From a virus (lineage: Duplodnaviria; Heunggongvirae; Uroviricota; Caudoviricetes), in the IMG/VR virus record IMGVR_UViG_3300036876_000145, positions 19,489 through 83,488 of that record: 64,000 bases of DNA; one strand, given 5' to 3'. The translations under genes and the position numbers were made by a program. Shown here piece by piece: positions 17,907-55,911 of this stretch. Positions within the stretch are counted from its first letter, which is position 1, and every line of letters starts with the position of its first letter. Below the pieces are notes generated by a model. The model made no database searches, was not told the origin of the DNA, and worked only from the letters and a program-made list of their open reading frames with translations.

Positions 17907-17955
17907 AATTTAATTTGTTAAATGTTTGCATCTTAATTTACGAGGAGAAAAATTT

Positions 17956-19857
17956 ATGGCTGGACATGTTACCCCACAAGCGAAGGTTCTTTTGGTTATT
18001 GTTGGAGTTGTAGGACTCTGTTTCTTAGGTAAGACAGCGATGGAACGGGGCTGGATGCCAACTCCCAACATCATGAAGGCGATTGTCCCATCCCACATTT
18101 CACTTCCAGAAGTGAAAGATGCACAGGTTGCGAATGTTGTACCGGCACCCCTACCACAAAGCACACCGGCAACCGTTTCTAATACGCCTATCATCGGAGA
18201 AGTTTGGGAATGGAATGCTATGTTAGGTCATCTATTGGCAAACGGCGGTAAACATACAACCGCTGGTTCCCTGATGGCAAAGCGTAATGTTAATCTGACA
18301 CTTAAGAGGCAAGATCTCACCGATCAAATGCAATTGGATTTGATCGCTTGTGCCAGCCAGCTAGCGGGGGGGTCTACGGATTGTTCCACCGGAGCGAACT
18401 ATGTTATTATCATGGGCGACGGTGCGGGGCAATTTGCAGCTGCTACCAATCCAAAGCTTTATGACTTGGACTGCAAGGGAAAGCCAAAGGGCTGCGTTTC
18501 GAAGTATACGCTCAAGGTTATCGCCGCAACTGGATATAGCCGCGGAGAAGATGCCTTTTTGGCCCCTCCGAATGTAAAGAAAGATTCCAAGTCTTTCAAT
18601 CAATCCCCTATGCCTGGGTCGCAAGATTCCAAGGGTCAGGAAATTACTGGCCTATTGGTTGAAGGCGTTCTTCGTGATGGTGATTGGAACATCGCCTTAA
18701 AGTGGGCTGGTGATAACGCCATCCCCAATAACCCGGACGAAAAGACTTTCGATCCAGATGCAGTTAACTGGATCAATGCTCCGGATTACAACACCGCCGC
18801 TACAGATTATGTCGCCGGTAAGTGCGAAGATCGTAAACTCGTGCATGCGGGGCGTCCTACAGGGGATATGGTGCATGTCTGTGTAAACTCCCTTGTGACT
18901 TGGACACCCGGAGATGTTGTAGCCGTGACGAAGAAGGGCGGCGTAGTGAAGGTTGTTTCTTCCAAACAAAATCGCAGTCAGATGCCCGCTGTGATTATTG
19001 GTCCGGCAAAGTTTTTCCAAGACAATCGGGAAGAAATCACTAACATGCTCGCTGCTACTTTCGAAGGTGGCGACCAAGTGAAGGCGTTTGACTTGGCTCT
19101 GCACAAGGCGGCAGCTATTTCATCCGATGTTTATGACGATAAGGGTGATGCTCCAAACGAAAACGGAGACTACTGGTACCGTTATTACAAGGGTGTTCCG
19201 TACAAGGATCCCACCACGGGGCAGATAGTCGAACTAGGCGGTTCGTCTGTGAACAACTTGGATGATAACCTTATCTTGTTTGGTATGAAGGATAAGGGGA
19301 ATGACAACTTCCGCTCAACTTATACGCTCTTTGCGAACATTGATGTACAGCAATACCCAACTTTGTTCAAAGAGACTCCAATTCCTGATGTGAAGCTTGT
19401 GGAAGATAAGTCTTTCATCCAGGGAGCGAAGGATATACTCAGCGGGGATAACAACACCGGCTCCGAAGCAGCGGAACCAGCGTATGAACAGCAAGCTACG
19501 GGAAGTGTCATTGGTCAGCGTGCCTATGATATCAACTTCAAGACGAATGAAGCGAAACTTACCGAGGCTGGTGAGGCACAGTTGAAGCAATTGAAGGATG
19601 GCTGGGCAATCACCGGAGCGTTTATTCAGGTCGATGGCTATACAGACAGCACAGGCAATGAAGATCACAACCTTGAACTATCAAAGGGACGTGCGGCCGC
19701 TGTGGTTACATACCTGCACACAAACTGGCCGACAAACTTCCCGGCAAAGCGTTTCAAAGCCACGGGTCACGGTTCTCAAGACCCCGTAGCTTCTAACGCT
19801 ACAGCCGAAGGGAAGGCTCAAAATCGTAGGGTTACGATTACCCTGCTAGGCAAGTAA
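17956..19857 (+). CDS. OmpA-family protein (N-terminal TM anchor, C-terminal OmpA/MotB peptidoglycan-binding domain)
   Basis: Start set at MAGHV, which has an aggag Shine-Dalgarno. C-terminus ...GYTDSTGNEDHNLELSKGRAAAVVTYL is an OmpA C-like domain. Confidence 0.75.
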   Translation: MAGHVTPQAKVLLVIVGVVGLCFLGKTAMERGWMPTPNIMKAIVPSHISLPEVKDAQVANVVPAPLPQSTPATVSNTPIIGEVWEWNAMLGHLLANGGKHTTAGSLMAKRNVNLTLKRQDLTDQMQLDLIACASQLAGGSTDCSTGANYVIIMGDGAGQFAAATNPKLYDLDCKGKPKGCVSKYTLKVIAATGYSRGEDAFLAPPNVKKDSKSFNQSPMPGSQDSKGQEITGLLVEGVLRDGDWNIALKWAGDNAIPNNPDEKTFDPDAVNWINAPDYNTAATDYVAGKCEDRKLVHAGRPTGDMVHVCVNSLVTWTPGDVVAVTKKGGVVKVVSSKQNRSQMPAVIIGPAKFFQDNREEITNMLAATFEGGDQVKAFDLALHKAAAISSDVYDDKGDAPNENGDYWYRYYKGVPYKDPTTGQIVELGGSSVNNLDDNLILFGMKDKGNDNFRSTYTLFANIDVQQYPTLFKETPIPDVKLVEDKSFIQGAKDILSGDNNTGSEAAEPAYEQQATGSVIGQRAYDINFKTNEAKLTEAGEAQLKQLKDGWAITGAFIQVDGYTDSTGNEDHNLELSKGRAAAVVTYLHTNWPTNFPAKRFKATGHGSQDPVASNATAEGKAQNRRVTITLLGK

Positions 19858-19962
19858 AACAGTCCCACAACTGAAAATATGTGGGTGGTGGGAGTGGGAG
19901 TAGACCTACTTAGGGTCAGAAGAAATTCTGACCCTAATTCTTTTTATTCGCATCTTAAATAT

Positions 19963-20751
19963 ATGAACGAGATTCTATCAGCGTTTATCCCCAATCGGGC
20001 AATTAGCAAAACCACGGTTACCTATCTGGTGACGGGTTATGTTATTATGTTCTTCTTACTTTGGGCGTTCTCTCCGTTTGTCCTATTGCCTACCATTGGC
20101 GCTACTTGGGAGGCATTTAAAGAGCAATGGGGGCAGGGGTTGATGGGCGAATTGTGTATAAGCCTCTTCGCCAACTTAGAAGCGTTGACAATCGCCACGC
20201 TCATTTCCCTGGGGTTGGCGTACCTCACAGTCTTGGAAGGGCTGCGTCCTATAGTAGGGGTGTTGAGCAAATTCCGCTATATGTCTATGGTAGGGTTGAG
20301 TTTCTTTTTTACAGTTGCCGCCCACAATCAGCATCAATTGAAAATCTCCCTGCTAGTTTTTAGCGTTAGTGTTTTTTATGTCACAGGTATGGCAGATGTT
20401 GTAGCATCTATCCCTAAAGAGCAGTATGATCTAGCTCGTACGCTGCGTATGGGCTCTTGGCGTACGATGTGGGAAGTTGTCGTACTGGGGCAGATAGATA
20501 AAGCCTTTGATGTACTGCGTCAGAACGCCGCTATTGGCTGGATGATGCTCAGTATGATAGAATCCATGGTGAGGTCAGAGGGAGGCATCGGAGCCATGTT
20601 AGCCACTGCGAATAAGCATTTCTATTTGGACGCTGTTCTTGCAATTCAAATAACAATTTTGCTGACGGGGTTGGGGCAGGATTACCTCATCGGTGTGGCT
20701 AAAAATATGTTCTGCCCGTATGCTAAAATTGGATCGGAGAGAAAGTCATAG
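19963..20751 (+). CDS. ABC transporter permease (BPD-type inner-membrane component)
   Basis: Six TM pattern and an EAA-like loop EQYDLARTLRMGSWRTMWEVVV. Start set at MNEILSAF. Confidence 0.75.
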   Translation: MNEILSAFIPNRAISKTTVTYLVTGYVIMFFLLWAFSPFVLLPTIGATWEAFKEQWGQGLMGELCISLFANLEALTIATLISLGLAYLTVLEGLRPIVGVLSKFRYMSMVGLSFFFTVAAHNQHQLKISLLVFSVSVFYVTGMADVVASIPKEQYDLARTLRMGSWRTMWEVVVLGQIDKAFDVLRQNAAIGWMMLSMIESMVRSEGGIGAMLATANKHFYLDAVLAIQITILLTGLGQDYLIGVAKNMFCPYAKIGSERKS

Positions 20752-20752
20752 A

Positions 20753-20770
20753 CCCAGACTAAAGTCTGGG
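20753..20770 (+). terminator. hairpin after the permease gene
   Basis: cccagact-aa-agtctggg perfect 8-bp stem right after the stop; no U tract. Confidence 0.3.
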
Positions 20771-21044
20771 CTTGGGGAAGCCTGACCAACAGGTGGAAGC
20801 AAGTTAAACCTATGTACTAGACAAGTAGGGCTTGTATAGCCGCAAAGTTAGCCTGCTGAGGGTGGTTCCTCAGAGCATGTTTGGGATGCTTCTCTAGTCT
20901 CAAGCCTCTGTGCAGGCAACCGTCGAAGAGGCAAGAGATGGGGACAAAGTTTCAAGCCAGACGATTGCACATTTCTGAGTTTCAACACATGGAGGACGGC
21001 GCTCCTCCCAGCATAACTGCTGGGTTTCCGCGCCTAAAATCACG

Positions 21045-21380
21045 ATGAATACACTCAGGTTATTTTGTGAATTATTCGTAATTATTGCTGGGGGTTTCTG
21101 TTTGATGTATTTTATCAAAATCGCATCGAAATGGCACCCACATGAGTGGGAGATTGTGGGCGCGTTTTGCGTGGGTAAAGATCAAGTTGATACCGAAGTT
21201 CTTCATCGGTGTAAGATTTGTGGCGCTGTGAAGATTGTCGAGTTAAAGGGCGACTGGGCCATGGATCAACTCGTAGAATCAAAATCACCATATGACGACG
21301 CATGGCTTAAATCTAAGAAAGGAGAGAAAGAGCAAATTAGAAGGAGAACAGATGACAATAAAGACATACAAGAACGGTAA
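21045..21380 (+). CDS. hypothetical small membrane / zinc-ribbon protein
   Basis: 111-aa ORF with an N-terminal hydrophobic helix and CKICGAV. Confidence 0.35.
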   Translation: MNTLRLFCELFVIIAGGFCLMYFIKIASKWHPHEWEIVGAFCVGKDQVDTEVLHRCKICGAVKIVELKGDWAMDQLVESKSPYDDAWLKSKKGEKEQIRRRTDDNKDIQER

Positions 21381-21690
21381 GGTTGTTCTCAAAGAAGATG
21401 GAATCAAAATTTGGATAAGTCCCAAAGATCATCCGCAGGTTCATCTATGGGATGATCTTAACAGATATGGCTACTATGTTTATCGGGGCATCTCTCTTGG
21501 TGATAACCCAACAATAGAGATAAGGACTGAACTAGTAAAGGAGATTTTGATTCAATACAAAACAGTTCGCGGACAAAGAACAAGCTGGACTGTTGACGAC
21601 GCATGGCTTAAGAAATGGAAAGCAAGAAATGGAAAGGAAATAGATCCTCCGGTTCCTGTTAAGCCGGATGTAAAAGGAAAAAATAAATGA
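21352..21690 (+). CDS. hypothetical protein
   Basis: ORF 21292-21690 trimmed to MTIKTYKNGK, which has an aggag Shine-Dalgarno. Confidence 0.4.
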   Translation: MTIKTYKNGKVVLKEDGIKIWISPKDHPQVHLWDDLNRYGYYVYRGISLGDNPTIEIRTELVKEILIQYKTVRGQRTSWTVDDAWLKKWKARNGKEIDPPVPVKPDVKGKNK

Positions 21691-22553
21691 GCGCACTTTA
21701 TCCATACAGTTACGGTGATACTCTCCTAAAGATTGATCATGTGTACCTAAGCGCGTCCGCGGATGGGAATTCCCTGCTAACGAAGCCTATGCCTGGAAGC
21801 CGCGCTATTTTGACGGATGTCTGTGCAGAAATCAAGAAGATCAAACGCCCTAATCAAATTCAAGGGCAGATGGTAGGGTTATTGGGGCCTTCCGGACGGG
21901 GAAAAACACAGCTATTTCGTATTATTTCAGGTCTTAATAAACCCACATCCGGACAAGTTTTGATAAACGGGAAAGCGGTTCCCGTGGTCGCCGGAGAGGT
22001 AGGAGTAGTAGCACAAGATTATCCGTTGTTTGCGCATCGCACAGTTATGGGTAATTTAACGTTGGCGGCAGAGAAAAAAGAAAAAGATGCAAAAACCGCT
22101 CATGAAAAAATCATGACCTTTCTTAATGAATTCGGCATTGCAGATAAAATAAATTTGTACCCTGCTCAATTATCAGGGGGGCAAAAACAAAGAGTAGCAA
22201 TAATCCAGCAAATTTTATCATCATCATATTTCTTACTTATGGACGAACCTTTTTCAGGTCTCGATATTATCATGGAAGATAAGATGTTACAACTGATCAT
22301 GAAGATAGCCAATATGGATGATTTAAACTGTGTGATAGTTGTAACCCACGATGTAACAGCAGCGGCATCAGTGTGTGACCATATTTGGGCTTTGGGGTGG
22401 ACCCCAGGTGGGGATAAATCTTCTAGCATAGTAAAGACATATGATTTGATTGAACGGGGATTGTGCTGGGAACAATGGCAAAATATGGCGGCATTGCGCC
22501 CCGCTTTGACAGATTTTATTAAAGAGGTAAAAAACGATTTCTACACACTGTGA
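21687..22553 (+). CDS. ABC transporter ATP-binding protein
   Basis: Walker A GPSGRGKTQ, ABC signature LSGGQKQRVAI, Walker B LLMDEP, H-loop VVTHD. Confidence 0.8.
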   Translation: MSALYPYSYGDTLLKIDHVYLSASADGNSLLTKPMPGSRAILTDVCAEIKKIKRPNQIQGQMVGLLGPSGRGKTQLFRIISGLNKPTSGQVLINGKAVPVVAGEVGVVAQDYPLFAHRTVMGNLTLAAEKKEKDAKTAHEKIMTFLNEFGIADKINLYPAQLSGGQKQRVAIIQQILSSSYFLLMDEPFSGLDIIMEDKMLQLIMKIANMDDLNCVIVVTHDVTAAASVCDHIWALGWTPGGDKSSSIVKTYDLIERGLCWEQWQNMAALRPALTDFIKEVKNDFYTL

Positions 22554-40341: not shown

Positions 40342-40612
40342 CCAAGCTGGCTAAATCAATGCTGGATGTTGCATTCGGGAAATAAGAATTAAGAATTCTC
40401 GACGCCTTGGGATACATGGAGTCGTTAAACGACTGCGGACAGTGTGTAAGTCTGGCGAAAGCCAGCAGCGCTGGTTGAAACAGTTAAGGGCGGCGTTAGC
40501 CGCCTAGAATCTCCCGCCTTTAGGCGTGGGAGTATCAATATGATGGTAATTCTTAACAACACGCTCACCACGCTTCACCTCAGACCTAAACGCTAAATTT
40601 CCGCGTTCAAAA
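40342..40612 (+). ncRNA. non-coding structured region with multiple GNRA-capped hairpins
   Basis: No ORF. Hairpins agtcgtt-aa-acgact, ctggc-GAAA-gccag, gggcggc-gtta-gccgcc, ctcccgcc...ggcgtgggag. Lies between the 46-bp repeat and tRNA-Arg(TCT). Confidence 0.3.
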
Positions 40613-41461: not shown

Positions 41462-42778
41462 ATGATGAAAAAAGAAATGACCCTTTTGGGTCTAGTCGCC
41501 GCTACGTATTTTATGGTAAGCGGAGGCCCGTACGGTCTAGAAGACCTAATTGCTCAAACTGGTTACGGATGGGGAATACTCATTCTTTGCTTAGTGCCCT
41601 TCCTGTGGGCACTGCCAACCGCTATGATGGTTGGTGAACTCGCCTCTGCGATACCGAATCGCGGGGGTTTTTATATTTGGGTGCAACGTGCCCTTGGAAA
41701 ATTTTGGGGATTCCAGGAAGCTTGGCTTTCATTAGCGGCTTCCATATTTGATATGGGAATCTACCCGCTACTTTTTATTTCTTACCTGGGTGTATTGGCT
41801 CCAAGTTTCACCGCAGGGTGGCACGGCTCGCTTATAGCAACGGCTCTAATCGCTGTTTGCGTATTGTGGAACCTTCGGGGTGCCAAAGCTGTAGGAAACG
41901 GCTCTGTGGCGTTAGGAGCCCTTATGGTGAGCCCTTTTGTGATTATCACCCTAGCAGCTCTCCGACACGCCCATCTGACCCATGTTACGGGTCATCCTCA
42001 CGCCGTCAGTCTTATGGGCGGTATTATGGTCGCTATGTGGAACTTCATGGGTTGGGATAACGCCAGCACCATAGCCACAGAAGTCAAAAAACCTCAACGA
42101 ACCTACCCCATCGCCATGATGGTGACTATGCTGTTGATTGTTGGAAGCTATATTCTCCCCGTAGCAGCGTCTTGGTATCTGGGAGTACCCCTGTCTGCCT
42201 GGTCAACAGGGAGTTGGGCGACTATTGGTGAAATCATCGCGGGTTCTTGGGTACGAGACGCCATTGTACTGGGTGGAATGATCAGTGCAGCGGGGATGTT
42301 GAACTCCCTCATGATGAGCTATTCTCGTATTCCCCCAGCGCTGGCTGAAGATCATTATCTGCCTCGCATATTCACAAAAATAAATGCAGTGTCAGTTCCC
42401 ATGATAGCTTTATTTGCCTTGGCGACAGTTTGGGCAACAGCGTTCGGTTTGAATTTTGACCGTCTGGTGATGCTGGATATTTTACTTTATGGAACGAGTC
42501 TTATTCTGGAGTTTATCGCTTTAGTGGTATTGCGTTGGAAAGAACCAGATTTGCCTCGACCTTTTCGTGTGCCTGGGGGAAAATTGGGCGCTATCTTGGT
42601 AGGAGTTTGCCCAACGATACTTCTCTTCGCGGCCGGTATTTTTGGGGATCATAACGGACTATTGCTAGGCTTAGGCATGATTCTATCCGGGGTGGGTGCT
42701 TGGTGTGGAATTCATGGATTTCGTGCCGCTAAATATGAAAAAATCGCTCCCACTTTCTCAACTACCACGATCCCCTAA
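41462..42778 (+). CDS. APC-superfamily amino acid/polyamine permease
   Basis: 12-TM pattern; N-terminal GGPYGLEDLI...GELASAIPNRGGFYIWVQRALG typical of amino acid permeases. Confidence 0.85.
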   Translation: MMKKEMTLLGLVAATYFMVSGGPYGLEDLIAQTGYGWGILILCLVPFLWALPTAMMVGELASAIPNRGGFYIWVQRALGKFWGFQEAWLSLAASIFDMGIYPLLFISYLGVLAPSFTAGWHGSLIATALIAVCVLWNLRGAKAVGNGSVALGALMVSPFVIITLAALRHAHLTHVTGHPHAVSLMGGIMVAMWNFMGWDNASTIATEVKKPQRTYPIAMMVTMLLIVGSYILPVAASWYLGVPLSAWSTGSWATIGEIIAGSWVRDAIVLGGMISAAGMLNSLMMSYSRIPPALAEDHYLPRIFTKINAVSVPMIALFALATVWATAFGLNFDRLVMLDILLYGTSLILEFIALVVLRWKEPDLPRPFRVPGGKLGAILVGVCPTILLFAAGIFGDHNGLLLGLGMILSGVGAWCGIHGFRAAKYEKIAPTFSTTTIP

Positions 42779-44037: not shown

Positions 44038-44543
44038 ACTATCAAAATAAACTTCAAAAAATACAAAAAGAGTTTGTGCTGGGAATAAAAGATAAATTCA
44101 CCTGTATGACTAAATTTGAGCAAGTTTTATGGGAATACGGTCTTCTACCAAAACAAGAAGAGTTAGATAGGGAAATGTCTAATGAACATTTTTCTCGCTT
44201 GATACAAATGGCTATGGAACATACAGATACTCATTCAGATCGAGATCCTGAAAATAGTGAAGAATTGGATAATGAATACGCAGCGGCTTTTTATTCTGTA
44301 AGAGTTTGCCCAATTTGTCATATTACGCAATCCCGTCCATTAGTTGGTAGCGTGAGTGATTTAGCTCGAAAAATAACTGCATTAAACCCTCCTCGTTGTG
44401 AACGCTGCGCCATTGATTGGATGAAAAAACATCTAGAGAATTCCCCAAAAGGTGAAAATGTAGATTTGATAAAACCACTTAGCAAAGAAGAGAAAAAATT
44501 TTTTGATGAGTATGAGAAGGAAATGGAAGACTTTGAGGTTTAG
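44034..44543 (+). CDS. hypothetical zinc-binding protein
   Basis: 169 aa; CPICH...CERCA. Confidence 0.45.
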   Translation: MNYQNKLQKIQKEFVLGIKDKFTCMTKFEQVLWEYGLLPKQEELDREMSNEHFSRLIQMAMEHTDTHSDRDPENSEELDNEYAAAFYSVRVCPICHITQSRPLVGSVSDLARKITALNPPRCERCAIDWMKKHLENSPKGENVDLIKPLSKEEKKFFDEYEKEMEDFEV

Positions 44544-45232
44544 TGGTATTATTATGGTATATGAATATGAACGGCTCGACGAGCGCAATCCCGCCGCTTT
44601 GCGGTGGGTTAGCGAGTGCCTTGGTTCTCGACGTCGCAGTTATGGCGGACCCACAGAATGGTACCGTTCAACATCTCGGATTCAACCCAGCGGCAACCAA
44701 GTACAACTGGAGACGCAGGAGAGCCAACCTCAAGAGTGCAGGCAAGCGTCGTACACTGCGCCAACTGAGCCGTAAGCAATCACGACGTACAACACATGAG
44801 AATCACATCGTGTCTAAGCAAATAGTTTCCTATGCCGTAAAGCATCACCGCGCAATTGCCGTAGAAAACCTTGAGACAGTTCGTAAGCCGAACAGCAAGA
44901 TTCGGAAGTACGTCGAGAAGTCTCAATGGTCTTTCTATCAGTTGTTGTCGTTCCTCAAGTACAAAGCGGCTTTGCACGGCGTTATCATCGCGGAAGTCAA
45001 TCCTGCATACACCTCGCAGAATTGCTCTCGCTGTGGACAGCGGAACACTCCAAACGGCAAGAAGTACGTTTGCGAGCATTGCGGACACACCGACCATAGA
45101 GATGCTAACGCGGCATTCAACATCGCCAAGCGCGGTATTGAGTTCCTATCTATGGGCGGCACTCACGACTCAGAGCGCGTGAGCGGGGCTGTATTGGTGA
45201 CGCCCTATTCTGGAGGACCAGCATATGCTTAG
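44543..45232 (+). pseudogene. IS200/IS605-family TnpB (OrfB) remnant: C-terminal RuvC-II/III plus zinc finger only
   Basis: IAVENLE (RuvC-II), CSRCGQ...CEHCGHTDHRDANAAFNIAKRG (zinc finger plus RuvC-III). The N-terminal ~170 aa and the RuvC-I GIDLG Asp are absent (HLGFNP). GC-rich. Confidence 0.55.
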
Positions 45233-45305
45233 CATAATGTCACGGTTCGAAAGAATCCCAGAGTTCTACTCTGGGAGCATCAAATCGAATTTTAAGGAGA
45301 TAATT

Positions 45306-47760: not shown

Positions 47761-49284
47761 ATGGCAAGCGAAAATGATGGTAATGTTGTACTCAAACGTA
47801 TATTTGGAATGCTGGCTGACAAGGTTCGCATCTATCAAATTTTAGAAGAAACTGAAGTGCAACGAGACGAATTTGTTTACTGTCAAATTATGCATCAAAT
47901 TGTTTTTGGTGAAAACGGTTTTACAAAAACATTAGGGCATGTTTGGGGTATGGTACATGACCCCCGTTTCCAGGAAATAGAAAATTTAATGATTGTAGAT
48001 CGCCACGCTATTTTCGGTGGTGATGCTCGATTAGGTAAGCAATACATAAATGACGATGGAACTTTTACTTCTCCTATATCTGATCTGGAGAAGTATTCTG
48101 AGATTGTTGGTGAAGGAAGGAATTTTCATAATGTTCTTACTCACCCCGATGAAAAATGTCCTCAACGGTTGTGGTTAGAACGAATTCATCGCGGCTTTAC
48201 AAACATTAAACCTCACTCCACTCTTCAATGTATTTGTGCTACCGGTAAAGAAAATCCCACTACATTTAAAGATATGCCCGATGAAATTATATGGGCATTG
48301 ATTAAGCAAGAATGCCCCAATCGTGGGTTCAATGCTGACAAAACTCCCAATGCCTACGGTCAATTGATGTATGATCTTATTCGAGCGGATATTATCGGAC
48401 TTATTCATGATTATGCGGAGACTCCTTTGATTGACAGTTATGTTTATTTAAGAGATAACGGCATTATTAAGTACACAGAAACAGAATCCGTAGCTTCAAT
48501 AGACCCGTTTGGTTTAGAAAATCCCAGAGTTCTTCAAGAACTAGATATATTGGAACAGGCCCTTACTCACCGTGCTACTTTGCGAATGACGGCCTTAAAA
48601 ATTCTCAAAAAAGCAGGGCTACAAAATGAAATCCGTGAGGCTGATTTAACGGATATAGAACGGGATGAATTGTTATGTTTAATATACAGTCATGATTACC
48701 CTGATGTTGAAAATACAGATAGTACGATGTACAGAGCTGCAATAGATGCTTGGGAAAAACAAATTAAAGAAATTGTTAAAGACTATATTTTATCGGTAAT
48801 TACAAAAGATTTGAAGGAACGTGAAACCGTTCAATTGAATCAATTACAATTAGAGTCTAACGAAGCTGTAGATGGTCTGATGAAAGGAACAATTCAACCT
48901 ATTAATTCTTACACCGAACCTACGGTAGAAATTCCTACTGAGCAAGAAGAATCGGAAGTTGTTAAATATGCTCGTATGCTGGAAGCTATTATGGGGAACG
49001 AGTTCAAATCCGAACTTTATCTTTTGTTGATTGAAGCAGAAAGACAAAAAAATACGGCTATTGTAGATTTGTTAACTCCAATATTTCTTACTCCAGATTA
49101 CCCTTTAGATGAAAAGATTTTTTATAATTTCATTGAAAGTATTAGAATAGGTAGTAGAAGTCTGCGAGCGGATCGTCTGGAGGCGATTCGAGGTACGAAG
49201 CAAACCGGAATGAACTTAGATCCTGCTAAGACTACGCAAATCGATGAAGAGTTTCACAGCAAGGATTCACCATTTAGAGGTTAA
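47761..49284 (+). CDS. hypothetical protein (~507 aa)
   Basis: Long ORF; start at MASENDG; no motif recognised. Confidence 0.6.
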   Translation: MASENDGNVVLKRIFGMLADKVRIYQILEETEVQRDEFVYCQIMHQIVFGENGFTKTLGHVWGMVHDPRFQEIENLMIVDRHAIFGGDARLGKQYINDDGTFTSPISDLEKYSEIVGEGRNFHNVLTHPDEKCPQRLWLERIHRGFTNIKPHSTLQCICATGKENPTTFKDMPDEIIWALIKQECPNRGFNADKTPNAYGQLMYDLIRADIIGLIHDYAETPLIDSYVYLRDNGIIKYTETESVASIDPFGLENPRVLQELDILEQALTHRATLRMTALKILKKAGLQNEIREADLTDIERDELLCLIYSHDYPDVENTDSTMYRAAIDAWEKQIKEIVKDYILSVITKDLKERETVQLNQLQLESNEAVDGLMKGTIQPINSYTEPTVEIPTEQEESEVVKYARMLEAIMGNEFKSELYLLLIEAERQKNTAIVDLLTPIFLTPDYPLDEKIFYNFIESIRIGSRSLRADRLEAIRGTKQTGMNLDPAKTTQIDEEFHSKDSPFRG

Positions 49285-49318
49285 ATGACTACAGACACCC
49301 TCTCTTAGAGGGCAATCT

Positions 49319-49660
49319 ATGGCAAACTGTTTGCACCTGGAAGTGGATGACGGCTCTGGTTGCGGTGTGAATGTGACAGAGATTAAAGAACCAGCACCAA
49401 ATGTCGGCAACATCGGTGGAATCGTCAAATTGATTAATGCGACGGTGAAAACTTATACCCAACTTGTAAGAGAAAATACAGACCCTAAAAACCCCTCACT
49501 CCCTCGCCTCCGTCTTATTGGAGGTCAGTTCGTCCGTATCCCACACAAAAATATCTATAATGATTTGATCGGCCCTTCATATATTGCAGCCAGGGCCTTG
49601 GGGTATAGGGGTGGAATCGGCCGCTGGGCTGACTTGGTTCGAGAAAATATTTCTCTTTAG
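49319..49660 (+). CDS. hypothetical protein
   Basis: 113-aa ORF. Confidence 0.4.
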   Translation: MANCLHLEVDDGSGCGVNVTEIKEPAPNVGNIGGIVKLINATVKTYTQLVRENTDPKNPSLPRLRLIGGQFVRIPHKNIYNDLIGPSYIAARALGYRGGIGRWADLVRENISL

Positions 49661-49802
49661 CCGAATCCAGTCAACACCCACTAATTCACATGCCACCTTG
49701 TAGGGCCCCGTACATACGACCTAAGCACAAGTTTACTCTGAGCATCAAAACTTTCCCGGTTATAAGTTGTTGATTTTAAATACTTTAAAAATATCCATTT
49801 TC

Positions 49803-49835
49803 AGTGTTTCCGATGTATACTAGGGATGGAGGCGA
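49803..49835 (+). promoter_or_regulatory. TGTATACTAGGG-type promoter-like element (copy A of a 40-bp duplicated block)
   Basis: atccattttcagtgtttccgatgtatactaggga is identical to 51907-51939. Extended -10-like TGTATACT sits about 10 nt before the ATG. Confidence 0.4.
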
Positions 49836-49836
49836 T

Positions 49837-50742
49837 ATGACAAAGAAAAGTAGCTCTGATGTGGCGGCTGATTTGAAAAGTGCAATGGGTTCCGCTGCCG
49901 ATGCAAAGACTATTCTCGATACACCAGATAAGAAAACCGCCAGCCGTTCCACATGGAAGGGTTATATTTCCGCTTTTGGCGTTATGCTGATTCCCGCCGC
50001 AACCCTGAAAGCCACTGATGTTGATGCTATCGAAACCCACATGTACCATAGCGCTGCTTGTCCGAATCGTTTGGTGCAGAAATACACCTGCTCTTGCTGC
50101 GACACCGAAGTCCCCAACGCTCGTACAAACGCCCTTAAGGGTGTAGAAGTGGGGGACAAAGTCATTACTCTCACTCAAGCGGAATTAGACGCTCAGAAGC
50201 CCACTAGTGACAAAATTCTCAAAGTCACCGAGTTTGTTCCCGCTGATGCGATTGATGTTACCTACTACGAATCCAGCGAATACATCGCCGCTGATAAGGG
50301 TGGGGAAAAAGCCTTCGCCACATTCCAGCAAGCCTTGGCGCAAACGGGGCGTATCGCTATCGGCACCTTCGTAAGCCGCGGTCACCAATACACTGTTGCA
50401 CTTCGCCCCAAGGGTCAGTATGGTATCGTCATGTCTTATTTGTTCGCGGAATATGAAGTTCGCAACTGCGGCAAGTGGACGCCTGTTGTTGTCAATCCGG
50501 CAGAAGTTGATTTGGTCAAGCAGCTTATGACTGAAACCGAACTGGCAAAAGAAGTATTCACCCCCGCCGCCTATGACCCCTATCTCTCTGGCGTGCGCAA
50601 GATGATTGCTGCTAAGGCAAATGGTACGGAAGTTTGCACCCCGGCTGCGGACGAAGTTCCCAAGGCTACGGATGATTTGTTGGCGGCGTTGAAAGCTACC
50701 CTGGAGCAGCAAAAGGCAAAGGCTGCAAAGGCTGGTGTATAA
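49837..50742 (+). CDS. ku: Ku protein (non-homologous end-joining DNA end-binding)
   Basis: WKGYISAFGVMLIPAATL, YYESSEYIAADKGGEKAFATFQQALAQTGRIAIGTFVSRGHQYTVALRP, YLFAEYEVR match bacterial Ku (WSGAISFGLVNVPVKLY, YYLAPDKGGEKAYALLREAL...AIARFV...LAALRP, YADEVR). A Cys-rich insert HMYHSAACPNRLVQKYTCSCCD. Confidence 0.85.
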   Translation: MTKKSSSDVAADLKSAMGSAADAKTILDTPDKKTASRSTWKGYISAFGVMLIPAATLKATDVDAIETHMYHSAACPNRLVQKYTCSCCDTEVPNARTNALKGVEVGDKVITLTQAELDAQKPTSDKILKVTEFVPADAIDVTYYESSEYIAADKGGEKAFATFQQALAQTGRIAIGTFVSRGHQYTVALRPKGQYGIVMSYLFAEYEVRNCGKWTPVVVNPAEVDLVKQLMTETELAKEVFTPAAYDPYLSGVRKMIAAKANGTEVCTPAADEVPKATDDLLAALKATLEQQKAKAAKAGV

Positions 50743-50765
50743 GGCTGCAAAGGCTGGTGTATAAA
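50718..50765 (+). repeat. 23-bp tandem duplication spanning the Ku stop codon
   Basis: aaggctgcaaaggctggtgtataa occurs twice in tandem. Confidence 0.7.
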
Positions 50766-50978
50766 TGGATCAGGTCAATACCCCAACCCCAACGCCTAAA
50801 GGCGGATTTAGTATGCCGCATACCCATGCGACTCGCTGACTAGCAAGGATCATCAGCTACGAGAAGAGGAGTACCAAATCGTAGATTTGATTCTGGGAAT
50901 CAATAGGAAAATTGGCGCTTTGGGAGTATTTAATCCCGCCGCACTCACATCTGAAATGGCGAAGCAGGAACTTGGGCA

Positions 50979-51332
50979 ATGAAGATCACTAGATCACTCA
51001 CTAAAGCACAACAGCAAGTGTTATTCAATATATCGATAGGATTTCCTTTCTGTGAATATCTAACACCGGAAAGAACGAGCAGGTTTTTTCGTACTTTGGG
51101 AGAGAATATTCCGGCTCGATTGAATTACATTATTACCCTTGACACGGCTGGTAAACGAGTTTCATATAAGACATTTTTAGCTTTATTCAAGAGAAACCTT
51201 ATTGCTCCCAGTAAGTACAAAGAAAGTCCATCCCCACAGGATGGCATCACCCAATTTTATTTAACGGAATTGGGGAGGCAGGAAGTTAACCGAAAAGTGA
51301 ATTTCAAAATCCCTATTAGGAGAACCGAGTAA
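50979..51332 (+). CDS. hypothetical protein
   Basis: 117-aa ORF. Confidence 0.45.
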   Translation: MKITRSLTKAQQQVLFNISIGFPFCEYLTPERTSRFFRTLGENIPARLNYIITLDTAGKRVSYKTFLALFKRNLIAPSKYKESPSPQDGITQFYLTELGRQEVNRKVNFKIPIRRTE

Positions 51333-51516
51333 TGCCCCAACAATGGGAGAGATTACCCCCAGATGAAGAAGCAGGAACCCCTGCTTTGTTTCCCCCAGAA
51401 TCAGACCTTTGCAGAGAATGTGACGGCACCGGAGTGCTGTATGGACAGCTCTGTAAAAAATGTGGCGGCAAAGGGGAAATTTAGCCAAAACCCGTGTTTT
51501 GGATGTATACTAAGGT

Positions 51517-51888
51517 ATGAGCCCATCTCAGGAACGAGTCTATTTGGACGCTGAGCGAGAAGAAGGCATCGCTGAACTTCGTAACGACCCCGCGTACAAT
51601 TTTGCGGAGCCAGAGTGCATAGTTCCCTCAAAATATCATCAATACTTCGTTGACTACGGGCGCTGCTTGTATGACAAGCTCCCGCTTCGCCAAGAAATGC
51701 ACGCGTTCAATCACTACAAAAAATTTCACTGGCACAAGTACCCTCGATACCTTGCGTACCAGGGCGGTACTTGGCATGAAGTTTCTATAGGTGCTTATTT
51801 GGCTGCGAAGTTTGGTCATTTAATTCCCGTCGCTATCGTCCACGATCCTAAAAAACCGAAAAATAAACGTGCAAAGGCTGTAAAATAA
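51517..51888 (+). CDS. hypothetical protein
   Basis: 123-aa ORF preceded by a tgtatactaagg motif. Confidence 0.45.
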   Translation: MSPSQERVYLDAEREEGIAELRNDPAYNFAEPECIVPSKYHQYFVDYGRCLYDKLPLRQEMHAFNHYKKFHWHKYPRYLAYQGGTWHEVSIGAYLAAKFGHLIPVAIVHDPKKPKNKRAKAVK

Positions 51889-51937
51889 AAGGGTTAGAAA
51901 ATATCCATTTTCAGTGTTTCCGATGTATACTAGGGAT

Positions 51938-52138
51938 ATGGCAAAGAAAAAAAAGAAAAAAAGTAGCTCTGACATGGCGGCTGATTTGAAAAGCGCATTG
52001 CAGTCGTTAAACAAGATGATTGGCTATGCAAAATACGTCGAAGAAATGGATTGGTGGTATTTCAGGGAAGAAGTGCAACCGGGTTGGAAAAATGATTTAG
52101 CGGAAGCCGAAGCTATTGCGGCAAAGTTACACACTTAA
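51938..52138 (+). CDS. small protein carrying a duplicated Ku N-terminus
   Basis: MAKKKKKKSSSDMAADLKSALQS parallels the Ku start MTKKSSSDVAADLKSAMGS. The upstream 40 bp are identical to the Ku promoter region. The rest is unrelated. Confidence 0.45.
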   Translation: MAKKKKKKSSSDMAADLKSALQSLNKMIGYAKYVEEMDWWYFREEVQPGWKNDLAEAEAIAAKLHT

Positions 52139-52341
52139 GGATTCTATGATGACAGACACATTTACATTTTGTAACCCGGCAGCACGTACAGAGTGGCGCA
52201 ATGATCACGGGGTGGAGAAATGTGGTGTGGAGTTTGCCTTCACAGAGACAGATGAAGTCTTTCATGGATTTCCTTTGTTCTACCTGCACATGGAGCGTAT
52301 CTCCCCGACCAATAAAGCGCTCTTGACAAGGGCGGCAGCAA

Positions 52342-52581
52342 ATGAGTAATTTATTTGTTATAGGGGAAGATGAAAAGCCACAATGCTCCGCTTGCTACAA
52401 ATTCTTTGAACCGGTGGGGGAATATTTTGAACGGTGTAAAAGCCGAACAAAATTTTCCCCTGATTTTCCGAAGTTCGCTGAATCAGATCCTTTTGCATTT
52501 TGTTCCGAGAGGTGTGAACAGGCGACAATCGATCAAATGCGAATAACTCGAATTGAGGATGTCAAACAGTCCGATTTCTAA
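52342..52581 (+). CDS. zinc-ribbon mini-protein
   Basis: 79 aa; CSACYKF...CSERCEQ. Confidence 0.4.
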   Translation: MSNLFVIGEDEKPQCSACYKFFEPVGEYFERCKSRTKFSPDFPKFAESDPFAFCSERCEQATIDQMRITRIEDVKQSDF

Positions 52582-52787
52582 AAAATTATCAATCTACCAA
52601 GGTCCTTAAAAGAGGTATCCCTTATGTACGATGAAGATGAAGATTTGGATCGTGTAGACCACGATTCAGATGATGAAGAAGAATTCGTTGAAGATGATGA
52701 AGACGAACTACAGGAACTGGATGTAGACGAACGCGGGCATGTTCGACCACGCCGCCGAAAGTCCGAAGATCGGGAAGAAGAGGATGT

Positions 52788-53075
52788 GTGAAAATTTTAT
52801 TTGTCTTCGCACTGCTGGCATTTTCAGGATTATCAATCTGGAGAATAAAAAACTCAGTTGTTAGTTATCCGCATACGGGGACTGCTCATACGGGGGCTGC
52901 TCATACGGGGGCTGCTCTAATTGCACCCCCGAGTTTACCACCATGTCTAGGCAATTGTGAGTTTTGGGGAGATTTTTCAGCTATTCCGACCCCAGAAATT
53001 CGTTCCTCTCCGCTATTTGATTCCATCTGCGTAACAGGAAATCCCTGCAATCAGCGAAAATTGAACTTTATATAA
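52788..53075 (+). CDS. hypothetical secreted/membrane protein with the peptide repeat TGAAH x3
   Basis: Signal-like N-terminus; the DNA carries a 15-bp tandem repeat x3 at 52873-52917. Confidence 0.35.
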   Translation: MKILFVFALLAFSGLSIWRIKNSVVSYPHTGTAHTGAAHTGAALIAPPSLPPCLGNCEFWGDFSAIPTPEIRSSPLFDSICVTGNPCNQRKLNFI

Positions 53076-53270
53076 ACCCAAAAATGTGGTATTATATTGA
53101 GTATCAGGATTCAAATGATAAAATTATGGAAGCGGTTTCGAAAATGGTATCGATGGAAGTTATTCGGTATTATAGAATGTGTAAAGCCAACAGGCACCAC
53201 CAGCTTGCTAGCAAAAATCTCTAGCGGTATTCATCCAACCTTCAGCAGAACATACATCAGGAGGTACTAG

Positions 53271-53564
53271 ATGCCAGCAGAAAGTAAGTCTCATTGTGAT
53301 AAGAAGAAGGTGTGGAGCATCGGTGAAGAATCAGAGCTGTTCGCGGCTCGTTCTGAGAAAGAGGTACGGGAGTTTTATGTTGAACTAGTCGGGCAAGATG
53401 ATGCAGCAGAAGCGTTTGAAAGTGACTTCACAGAACGAGATTTGGCAGAGGAGTGGGAGTTTGATTTTGACGGCGTGAGAAAGACAATGACGCTGGCAGA
53501 ACTGTTGCGCGATATTCACGCGCATACTGCCATGCCAAATCAGGTTAGCACGTCTTACAACTAA
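53271..53564 (+). CDS. hypothetical acidic protein
   Basis: 97-aa ORF with an aggagg Shine-Dalgarno. Confidence 0.45.
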   Translation: MPAESKSHCDKKKVWSIGEESELFAARSEKEVREFYVELVGQDDAAEAFESDFTERDLAEEWEFDFDGVRKTMTLAELLRDIHAHTAMPNQVSTSYN

Positions 53565-53573
53565 GGGGTAAAT

Positions 53574-53981
53574 ATGAGTCATAAAAATGATCCAGATTAT
53601 CATGATATAAAAGCTAAAATTCTACTTGAAACCGCAACCCATCTCAAAACTCTAGTTAAAAACAACTCCAAAGGCAATTTATGTCACGGTGATCAACCAG
53701 GTCTCCTAGAAGCCGCCGCAGAGCTGCGTAGGATGGCTTCTAATGCACGCCGAGCCCATAAGAAGGTACAAGATGACCGCCGACAGAAGTCGCGCAAGGA
53801 AAGCCTGGATAAAAGAGAAAATACGTTGAGCAAGTATCGCAATAAAGAAGCGGTTGCTTTGGATATCGACACGACAGTATTTGGTGATATTCTCCCGTCT
53901 TGTGACGAAGAAGAAAGCTCGCGGGATCTAAGAACGTTAAAGCGCCTTTGGAACAACATCCCAAGACTCAATAGAAATTAG
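53574..53981 (+). CDS. hypothetical protein
   Basis: 135-aa ORF. Confidence 0.45.
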   Translation: MSHKNDPDYHDIKAKILLETATHLKTLVKNNSKGNLCHGDQPGLLEAAAELRRMASNARRAHKKVQDDRRQKSRKESLDKRENTLSKYRNKEAVALDIDTTVFGDILPSCDEEESSRDLRTLKRLWNNIPRLNRN

Positions 53982-54059
53982 GGGGCATAAGCAGCTTGTT
54001 TCTGCTACAAGCGACCCATGGCAGCCGCCGCAAATTCAAAAAAAGGATGACGACAATCA

Positions 54060-54643: not shown

Positions 54644-55459
54644 ATGTCCAACTACTACAACGAATACGAACCGCATGCAGCCGCTTGGTTGCGAAATTTA
54701 ATCAGCGCGGGTCTGTTGCCAAAAGGGGATGTTGATGAACGAAGCATTACAGATGTTACAACTAGCGACCTCGCAGGATACACCCAATGTCACTTCTTCG
54801 CCGGGATCGGCGGATGGTCCGTCGCCCTCCAGATCGCAGGAGTGCCAGACGACTACCCAATCTGGACAGGGAGCTGCCCCTGTCAACCCTTCAGCGCCGC
54901 ACCTGGAGAACGAAAAGGTACTGCCGATAAACGTCACCTCTGGCCTGTCTGGTCAGGGCTCATCCGCGAGTGTCGCCCTGCAATTTGCTTTGGAGAACAA
55001 GTTGAGGCAGCTATTAGGTACGGATGGCTCGATATTGTATCGGCAGACTTGGAAGATCAAGGCTACGCCGTCGGGGCGGCGATACTTGGCGCTTGTAGCG
55101 TCGGCGCTCCCCACAAGCGACAACGGCTATATTGGGTGGCCGACTCCCAACGCGTCCCAGCACAATTACTACGAGAACCCGGACGGATGGTTAGCGAGAC
55201 AGGAACAGCGGAAAAAGGACGGCAAGCAGACGTTCGCGATCAACTTGGGAATAGCGGCGAAGTTCACTTCTGGGACAGCCCTGAGTGGCTCGCCTGTAGA
55301 GACGGGCGACAAAGACCATGTGAACCCGGAGTTAGCCCGCTGGCTAATGGGATTCCCAACCGGGTGGACAAATTACGCGCCTACGGGAACTCGATCTGCC
55401 CTCCGCTCGCCTCGAAATTCATTCAAGCGGTCCTTGAAGCGAAAGAAGAAATCCAATGA
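54644..55459 (+). CDS. DNA (cytosine-5)-methyltransferase
   Basis: Motif I FFAGIGG, motif IV GSCPCQPFS, motif VIII GAPHKRQRLYWVA, C-terminal RAYGNSICPPLA. An overlapping second frame (54729-55472) also encodes a canonical motif X: NPELARWLMGFPTGW. Confidence 0.7.
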   Translation: MSNYYNEYEPHAAAWLRNLISAGLLPKGDVDERSITDVTTSDLAGYTQCHFFAGIGGWSVALQIAGVPDDYPIWTGSCPCQPFSAAPGERKGTADKRHLWPVWSGLIRECRPAICFGEQVEAAIRYGWLDIVSADLEDQGYAVGAAILGACSVGAPHKRQRLYWVADSQRVPAQLLREPGRMVSETGTAEKGRQADVRDQLGNSGEVHFWDSPEWLACRDGRQRPCEPGVSPLANGIPNRVDKLRAYGNSICPPLASKFIQAVLEAKEEIQ

Positions 55460-55911
55460 CGACACCGCTTAACCGATCAGTCAATTGCCGTGTATGCGGT
55501 GTGCTCATTCCAAAACCACGCTCATCCAACAGGAAGTATTGCAGCGATGCACACGCCCAGAAAGGGTTCCGCCTAGACCATCCCGACCATGAAAAGGAAA
55601 GGTACCAGAAGGACAAACAGGGATGCAGGGCACGTCATTTGATTCGTAAGTATAAAGGGTTCACCCAAGCCGACTATGACAAAATGCTTGCCGAACAAAA
55701 CGGGGCGTGCAAGATATGCGAATGCAGGCAGGAGAAGTGCCTTGACATTGACCACGACCACAAGACTGGACGAGTTCGTGGCCTGCTTTGTCACAACTGC
55801 AATTTGATGCTAGGAAACGCCCACGACGATCCAGAAACACTCGCCAAGGCGATTAAATACTTGGCAAGTCGCGGCGGCATCGTGAAGGCAATTATTGACG
55901 AGGTGCGGTAA
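55456..55911 (+). CDS. recombination endonuclease VII-family (T4 gp49-like Holliday-junction resolvase)
   Basis: CKICE...CLDIDHDHKTGRVRGLLCHNCNLMLG matches the Endo VII zinc-binding / catalytic signature. Confidence 0.8.
   Translation: MTTPLNRSVNCRVCGVLIPKPRSSNRKYCSDAHAQKGFRLDHPDHEKERYQKDKQGCRARHLIRKYKGFTQADYDKMLAEQNGACKICECRQEKCLDIDHDHKTGRVRGLLCHNCNLMLGNAHDDPETLAKAIKYLASRGGIVKAIIDEVR

Follow-up and report, generated by a model that had tools for sequence, protein, structure and literature searches.

Why does a phage gene for a DNA end-binding protein share its promoter and first codons with a short and otherwise unrelated gene farther downstream? The question is raised by the ku locus of a large, uncultured Caudoviricetes phage from metagenome samples (IMG/VR record IMGVR_UViG_3300036876_000145), of which we analyzed one 64,000-nucleotide (nt) stretch (positions 19,489 to 83,488 of that record; referred to here as the window). 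The locus has more structure than was recognized in an earlier sequence-only reading, which had described the repeated promoter and 5' codons and a tandem duplication at the ku stop codon. In the interpretation that we prefer, to which we assign a probability of about 0.6, a tandem or circular ku intermediate left a patch of ~135 bp that remodeled the neighboring genes. What the locus records is lineage-specific remodeling of phage open reading frames (ORFs), not a new kind of system.

The ku promoter and first codons occur twice

The 40 nt that form promoter repeat copy 1 upstream of ku recur without a mismatch as copy 2 at a downstream location, here called site 2 (40/40 nt; 0 expected by chance) (Table 1). 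The similarity runs past an indel into the first ~17 codons of ku, with 40 of 45 nt (89%) identical between 49843-49887 and 51956-52000, and it stops after ku codon ~17, which corresponds to codon ~20 of the small ORF at site 2. A BLAST alignment of 49785-49884 with 51894-51997 gave 84.8% over 105 columns. The exact repeat and the codon match together bear out the earlier statement that the ku promoter and its first ~20 codons recur downstream. Two indels separate the copies. Nine extra bases (GGAGGCGAT) follow the repeat in the ku copy and give a GGAGG Shine-Dalgarno sequence (49828-49832) that copy 2 lacks, and twelve extra A-rich bases in copy 2 add four lysines. Among the 13 shared codons there are four substitutions, two synonymous and two conservative (V/M and M/L). 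Both copies encode SSSD where the consensus of the Ku clade described below is SAAD; the duplication is therefore specific to this lineage.

The ORF lister placed the start of ku at the GTG at 49804, but the true start codon is the ATG at 49837, because the −10-like box (49816-49821) and the GGAGG fall inside the GTG extension and because all relatives begin with M-A/T-K-K. At site 2, the ATG lies 7 nt beyond TATACT, with no Shine-Dalgarno sequence. The TGTATACT motif occurs five times on the + strand of the window and not once on the − strand, and all five sites immediately precede the start of an ORF. In four cases (10027, 33242, 51504, and 51924), the ATG of an ORF stands at +6 to +8 relative to TGTATA[AC]T, without a Shine-Dalgarno sequence. 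Judged from this consensus, these sites probably constitute a phage promoter family, several members of which would give leaderless mRNAs. Family resemblance does not account for the two copies, since their 40/40 match continues into the codons and the third member is only 61% identical; they are a duplication.

Table 1. Coordinates of features at the ku locus in the window
Feature	Coordinates	Strand	Description or basis
Promoter repeat copy 1 (P_ku)	49788-49827	+	Exact 40-nt repeat; TATACT at 49816-49821 within GATGTATACTA
ku	49837-50742	+	301-aa bacterial-type Ku; Pfam PF02735, PHROG 4873, Mycobacterium tuberculosis Ku structures, 36 homologues
Clade-specific N-terminal extension, Ku residues 1-36	49837-49944	+	Alignment of relatives; AlphaFold2
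Ku bridge segment, residues 68-88 (HMYHSAACPNRLVQKYTCSCC)	50038-50100	+	Alignment to M. tuberculosis Ku and relatives
22-bp perfect tandem duplication (AAGGCTGCAAAGGCTGGTGTAT, 2.1 copies)	50719-50764	+	TRF score 92, 100% match
Third putative promoter-family member (GATGTATACTA)	51502-51512	+	61% identity to P_ku; g123 ATG 6 nt after the −10
g123, gene for a 123-aa protein	51517-51888	+	Last codons, (R)AKAVK*, within the ku-3'-like stretch
Putative ku stop-region copy (ku-3'-like stretch)	51863-51897	+	25/35 nt identical to 50739-50773; abuts promoter copy 2
Promoter repeat copy 2	51898-51937	+	Exact 40-nt repeat; TATACT at 51926-51931
Chimeric 66-aa gene	51938-52138	+	Residues 1-20 (MAKKKKKKSSSDMAADLKSA) from ku; ~21-66, small-protein family core

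Site 2 resembles a head-to-tail ku junction

The sequence preceding promoter copy 2 resembles the end of ku. This ku-3'-like stretch, which a repeat finder grouped with the tandem repeat at the ku stop (family D2), ends exactly at the start of copy 2, with zero gap. It and its counterpart at 50739-50773 are reciprocal best matches, and the pair is the only non-self match of at least 22/35 nt in the window when both strands are considered (128 kb). None of 200 Markov-shuffled windows reached 25/35, and 19,893 random 28-mers drawn from the window all stayed below the observed 21/28 at every position up to 100 nt from the ku stop. Both genes carry the match in frame (AKAGV* in Ku and AKAVK* in the product of g123), and the stop codons coincide. 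When the joint 50773|49788 was built synthetically, it aligned straight across site 2 with a score of 146, versus 126 for the native upstream context. The sole distant homologue of the g123 product (P0050; 53% identity) shares KKPK and ends in TMTAIASG (..KKPKKPKTMTAIASG), without the RAKAVK tail. The order at site 2, from ku 3' end to promoter to 5' codons, is one that comes about only at the joint of a tandem or circular 986-bp ku cassette. In its arrangement, the site looks like a fossil head-to-tail ku junction (50773|49788).

The repeats were found in independent contigs. The exact Ku protein was indexed in 76 collection blocks and the 66-aa protein in 39, and we fetched 20 loci from JGI and ENA samples that had been processed with several assemblers (including an ENA megahit assembly and a scaffolded ENA assembly). 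All 12 contigs covering ku agreed exactly in the tandem repeat and in promoter copy 1, A-runs included, and all 16 contigs covering site 2 agreed exactly in promoter copy 2. The duplications, whose absence from independent assemblies had been named as grounds for refutation, are no assembly artefact.

A chimeric small gene and a proposed history of the patch

Close homologues of the 66-aa protein encoded at site 2 were confined to the same phage population. An exhaustive phmmer search (1.84 billion representatives) yielded seven small proteins of 55 to 101 aa (P0040-45 and P0048; E values of 1e-5 to 5e-4) that are 43 to 50% identical to the 66-aa protein across residues ~17-64. The core of this small family, L..L..M.G[WY].KY.E..D.WY..EE, is present in the 66-aa protein, with invariant L24, M27, G29, Y33, D38, Y41, and E45 (alignment A2). 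The other members have N termini of varied length that are unrelated to Ku. The alignments indicate that the 66-aa ORF is a real gene and a chimera. The N-terminal motif belongs natively to most Ku proteins of the clade, whereas it is alien to the family of small proteins; the transfer, as read from these alignments, therefore ran from ku to the small gene. The 45-aa tail that had been called unrelated is indeed unrelated to Ku; however, it is not arbitrary sequence and represents the conserved core of a family of small phage proteins. Searches of Pfam, PHROG, and PDB with the small protein and with the family alignment returned nothing, and homologues of the small protein and of the g123 product were absent from the ku neighborhoods of the relatives. 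One member of the small family lies on a 41.8-kb phage-like contig with Dam, methylase, and integrase genes and no Ku gene.

These features could have arisen as follows. The 986-bp ku cassette (49788-50773, which starts at the promoter and runs 31 nt beyond the stop) would have adopted a head-to-tail form, either as a tandem duplication or as a circle, and a piece of ~135 bp across its joint would now lie at 51863-51999. This patch would have supplied the last codons and the stop of the upstream g123, a second exact ku promoter, and, for the small gene, the start codon together with the first 20 residues, the other 46 residues being the unrelated family core. The small gene would then be transcribed from a ku-type promoter alongside ku, probably as a leaderless mRNA, and its product would bear the Ku N-terminal helix. 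The hitch-hiking helix possibly docks the small protein where the N terminus of Ku docks. Promoter capture accompanied by a hitch-hiking N terminus is most likely the main selected effect.

Several observations weigh against this history. Divergence is uneven, with 71% identity in the 3'-end part, 100% in the promoter, and 89% in the codons, plus the two indels; a single event would therefore need unequal constraint or later gene conversion, and there may instead have been two events. Short and rich in Lys and Ala codons, the ku-3'-like stretch could owe part of its similarity to the ku end to convergence. No pristine ku-ku junction was found in JGI metagenome contigs, which gave just two unrelated chance matches, and protein searches found no relatives at 70 to 95% identity that show the state before the patch. 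Promoter activity and transcription starts are judged from the consensus, and a generic sigma-70 scan gave no score to the two exact promoter copies.

A phage Ku clade with an N-terminal extension

The ku gene is a genuine bacterial-type Ku gene, as the sequence-only reading had stated. Its product matched Pfam PF02735 with an E value of 1.8e-29 (103.5 bits, well above the cutoff of 25), residues 52-221 covering profile positions 7-185 of 190, and PHROG 4873 ("Ku-like DNA end binding") with an E value of 1.3e-28. Residues 34-292 are colinear with residues 22-285 of M. tuberculosis Ku (chains 9i91 and 8v53; E value of ~2e-17), comprising the core and the minimal C-terminal region, and residues 38-250 align to 9vnq_A, another entry named "Non-homologous end joining protein Ku." The Mu Gam family gave no match in the Pfam scan at E values up to 1; that scan lists Ku and a weak Rap1a match only. 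In the alignment, the C terminus stops at a short KAKAAKAG(K/V), and the long Lys-rich arm seen in actinobacterial Ku is missing. By homology, the protein most likely binds phage DNA ends as a ring dimer. It may protect those ends or rejoin them with the phage ligase.

Protein searches identified 36 Ku relatives. About two dozen of them form a clade at 33 to 68% identity, all metagenomic. A tblastn search of 50,697 phage records recovered only Mycobacterium phages Dallas and Klein, with 26 to 27% identity starting at query residue 37, and a DNA search of the same records with 49300-52600 gave zero matches. Because the PHROG, PDB, and tblastn matches all begin at residues 34 to 37, residues 1-36 are a clade-specific extension, which is absent from bacterial and mycobacteriophage Ku. 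The extension consists of motif 1, KKSxxDVAADLK (residues 3-14; consensus MAKKSAADVAADLK), a variable linker, and motif 2, TPxKK. Most clade members retain motif 1, even at identities as low as 33%; P0009 and P0020 do not have it. AlphaFold2 with the family alignment (monomer; overall pLDDT of 66.8) placed a helix at residues 6-17 followed by a low-confidence linker at residues 17-32. The extension is thus predicted to comprise a flexible linker that bears a short conserved helix (KKSAADVAADLK).

A T4-type rIIB gene immediately precedes ku in the loci of three distant relatives (L021:6122-9792, L023:6123-9765, and L022:7366-8460). In L021 and L023, rIIB is preceded by a putative rIIA of 768 to 769 aa (with a HATPase_c_3 match in L023). 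No rII genes were found within the 64 kb of the window. One of the relatives with the rIIB-ku arrangement is carried on a 458-kb contig.

The Cys-rich segment of Ku had been described as an unusual insertion and a possible zinc site. It is not an insertion: HMYHSAACPNRLVQKYTCSCCD aligns, with no length added, to FHQVHAKDNGRIRYKRVCEACG of M. tuberculosis Ku and to all relatives, and by this alignment the segment is the ordinary Ku bridge. The phage segment THMYHSAACPNRLVQKYTCSCCDTEV pairs with RFHQVHAK-DNGRIRYKRVCEACG-EV of M. tuberculosis Ku and is at most 1 to 2 residues longer. Real insertions at this position occur in relatives P0010, P0025, and P0026 and not in the Ku of the window. Residues H71, C85, and C88 correspond to His35, Cys48, and Cys51 of M. 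tuberculosis Ku, which form a coordination site between protomers (PMC12658125). Only the second part of the earlier suggestion survives, in that a metal site in the phage bridge is plausible, as predicted from this homology. Each of the 17 phage-clade members retains H71, C75, C85, and C88. C75 is a clade-specific extra Cys, missing from five actinobacterial Ku proteins that also have Asp at the position of C88, and C87 was found in the window Ku alone. The clade-specific HCCC (His-Cys3) arrangement is, on the basis of the alignment, a small novelty.

Recombination scars in the early region

The tandem duplication at the end of ku is real and its copies are 100% identical, with a unit of 22 bp instead of the 23 bp given earlier. 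Its first copy holds the ku stop codon and the second copy is noncoding, so the Ku protein is unaltered by the duplication. The extra 0.1 copy is a 2-nt AA common to both borders, which fits slippage or microhomology-mediated joining. Relatives have a single-copy KAGK* end followed by hairpins. The tandem duplication is a slippage or microhomology scar separate from the patch. We considered whether a +1 frameshift might carry translation into the second copy and so append KAAKAGV, and set the idea aside, as nothing supported it.

Comparison of the contigs revealed further indels. The window, L003, L004, and L010 share an 864-bp deletion relative to most of the population (junction 50835|50836, 1-nt homology), which takes out a gene whose product is an Ala-rich repeat protein, together with the 5' half of a 93-aa gene. 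A 79-bp segment (51206-51284) inside a 117-aa gene is missing from L005, L011, and L012, where the product has 80 aa; the junction homology is at most 1 nt. Other population indels lie at 44571-45279, 52872-52917, 53708-53774, and 55494-55700. The early region is plastic throughout, as in other large phages. Given similar indels across the region, these events are not a signature specific to the neighborhood of an end-joining gene; no excess near ku is demonstrable, and the events are not attributable to Ku. The sequence-only reading had seen a signature of recent illegitimate recombination around an end-joining gene. Both duplications are indeed scars of illegitimate recombination, but such events are not specific to ku, and "recent" does not fit because the copies have diverged (71% and 89% identity, with two indels) and because every sampled contig has one and the same arrangement.

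The Ala-rich repeat-protein gene (…AAAYAAADAAAYAANAARAAANAA…) lies just downstream of ku at L001:11025-11699 and is also present in L002, L011, and L018. The length of its product varies by contig (209, 224, 236, and 246 aa), and it has a weak match to a tail-fibre PHROG (E value of ~1e-3). In L002 (11893-20906) and L007, ku and the Ala-rich gene are followed by an HNH gene and then by large genes on the opposite strand (443 aa, 1547 aa, and glycosyltransferases); this order represents either an alternative genome arrangement or a module boundary. The indel at 52872-52917 coincides with a 15-bp tandem repeat (CATACGGGGGCTGCT, 3.1 copies) within a 95-aa ORF, which encodes HTGTA/HTGAA and differs in copy number in L011.

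Alternative explanations

The shared N terminus could itself be the functional element, that is, a portable docking or targeting peptide (for the NAD-ligase, a repair factor, a compartment, or the capsid) for whose possession the small protein was selected, acting as a cofactor or competitor of Ku. We hold this only as a tentative possibility. It is favored by the conservation of the motif over most of the Ku clade and its position on a flexible linker, by the synonymous or conservative nature of the substitutions between copies, and by the identical promoters of the two genes; moreover, the core of the small protein belongs to a conserved family, which marks the chimera as a real protein. However, six-frame scans of the window and of the relatives' loci found just two carriers of the motif in the window, Ku and the 66-aa protein, and the relatives' loci had no second copy. 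This is not the pattern of a shared targeting peptide of the T4 internal-protein type, which several proteins per phage carry. A degenerate-DNA scan of IMG/VR found the motif at an N terminus only in another Ku, the other matches being internal and due to chance. P0009 and P0020 lack motif 1, and no partner was identified. The idea that the N-terminal helix is a copy of the LigD-binding helix at the C terminus of Ku was rejected, as hhalign gave a probability of 0.4%.

Alternatively, site 2 might derive from a simple copy of ~100 bp (49785-49886, the promoter and 17 codons), with the end of g123 resembling the ku stop by a Lys/Ala-rich coincidence. The 100-bp repeat is unambiguous, and the ku-3'-like part is just 71% identical, is of low complexity, and has diverged differently from the adjoining promoter. 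Coincidence nevertheless has to accommodate a 35-mer that is the reciprocal best match in 128 kb and is placed exactly at the repeat boundary, a score reached by neither the shuffled windows nor the random 28-mers, and a match that is in frame in both genes with coinciding stops. On this evidence, we consider the simple copy unlikely.

The repeats might instead be regulatory cassettes of the PeSL type known from T4-type phages, kept as shuffling promoter modules and not as one-off scars. At least five related promoters lie on one strand in a variable early region, the relatives carry rIIA and rIIB and are hence T4-like in part, and PeSL recombination makes mini-circles (PMC2839356), which could give a head-to-tail joint. 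However, terminator and sigma-70 scans found nothing beyond chance, and no terminator-like stem-loop accompanies the promoters (+ strand, 49000-53000). The population indels are not bounded by promoter copies, their breakpoints (50835 and 51205/51285) being outside the repeats, and no variant has a deletion or inversion between the 40-nt copies. A promoter-promoter circle would also have the promoter as its joint, not the ku 3' end joined to the promoter. This explanation is improbable. Finally, assemblers can create or collapse short repeats, but the same sequences were present in every covering contig, across samples and pipelines, which leaves an assembly or sequencing artefact a negligible chance.

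Gene content of the window

Essentially all credible genes lie on the + strand across the window, and the content is phage-like; the window keeps the order g511 ... g113 ... ku. The co-encoded NAD-dependent ligase (LigA, 13226-15322) and SNF2 helicase (56920-58908) named by the sequence-only reading were confirmed. The endonuclease VII (55456-55911) that it also named is supported through a precomputed Pfam mark on the equivalent gene of L001, where the aligned DNA is 99.8% identical. LigA is the sole ligase seen in the window. Pfam and domain scans found no LigD-type domain among the 21 + strand ORFs of at least 229 aa in the window; the LigD partner for which the sequence-only reading had proposed a check is absent from this set. 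The two-component combination of Ku with a nearby ATP-dependent LigD-type ligase/polymerase was not found among these ORFs of the 64-kb window. Rfam searches of 48000-54000 gave nothing credible.

Further genes encode an HNH protein, a C5 methylase, a SprT-like protein, Thg1, RlaP, a TnpB-type protein, and others. Auxiliary genes that are unusual for a phage include those for a Thg1-like tRNA-His guanylyltransferase, an OmpA-domain protein, an ABC transporter ATPase with a possible permease, an RlaP nucleotidyltransferase, and an amino-acid permease (auxiliary gene coordinates, as a set, 29-874, 17926-19857, 19879-22553, 33432-34265, and 41462-42778). Also unusual in a phage is an 826-aa protein (30675-33155) that matches the Major Vault Protein shoulder domain (3.6e-26) and the vault repeat domain (1.8e-8). 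An ORF with a TnpB/Cas12f1-like TNB domain lies at 44543-45232, where most other contigs have an ADP-ribosylglycohydrolase gene. An element-end-like sequence of 146 bp is found again at 40392-40537; in L018 (1-600), the element-end-like sequence follows a Zn-ribbon ORF resembling the 3' end of TnpB, just upstream of the Ala-rich gene. The TnpB-like ORF and the recurring element end suggest an active IS200/IS605-type element in the phage population.

Comparison with known end-joining and promoter-shuffling systems

Few phages are known to encode Ku; one survey counted 11, all of which showed recent gene transfers (bioRxiv 10.1101/2020.04.14.041137). The window documents an uncultured Ku clade of about two dozen members whose nearest cultured relatives are only 26 to 27% identical to the window protein. 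Bacterial Ku recruits LigD through a long C-terminal arm that the clade Ku proteins lack, which raises the question of how a ligase is recruited in their case. The patch would be a natural example of promoter capture, N-terminal domain grafting, and C-terminal repair of a neighboring gene, all at once. A bolder version holds that the ku cassette became circular or tandem by end joining (possibly through its own product and the NAD-ligase), that the helix is a portable docking peptide, and that the 66-aa chimera is a dedicated modulator of the Ku pathway, brought to the partner to which Ku itself docks. We regard it as a long shot; if true, it would amount to a phage end-joining module with LigD-independent recruitment via the Ku N terminus.

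The phage protein shares with M. tuberculosis Ku (9i91 and 8v53; PMC12658125) the Pfam family, a colinear core, and the bridge His and CxxC. It differs in that identity is only ~28%, in the added 36-residue N-terminal extension and the extra conserved Cys, in its KAKAAKAGV end without the long Lys-rich arm, and in having no LigD nearby. Mycobacteriophage Ku proteins (of the Corndog and Omega type, and those of Dallas and Klein) are likewise phage-encoded members of PF02735. A passage of PMC4351075 citing Pitcher et al. 2006 describes Corndog Ku as thought to help genome recircularization by end joining. In contrast to the present clade, these proteins show 26 to 27% identity from residue 37 and belong to another host and phage type; relatives of the window Ku have their ku gene placed after rIIA-rIIB, and the window itself has an NAD-dependent ligase.

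PeSL cassettes (PMC2839356 and PMC4122927) resemble the locus in having repeated early-promoter modules in a variable region and circular or shuffled intermediates that move small ORFs and give promoters. The ku locus differs in that the repeat enters coding sequence and the joint connects a gene 3' end with a promoter, in the missing terminator stem-loop, and in indels that are not bounded by repeats. Mu Gam is described, in a passage of bioRxiv 10.1101/2020.04.14.041137 that draws on Bhattacharyya et al. 2018, as a Ku-like end binder promoting end joining with a host ligase. It offers a precedent for Ku acting together with a non-LigD ligase such as the LigA-type enzyme encoded in the window. 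The ligase in the Mu Gam reaction is reportedly E. coli LigA. Unlike Mu Gam, the protein in the window is a true PF02735 Ku, and its ligase is encoded by the phage.

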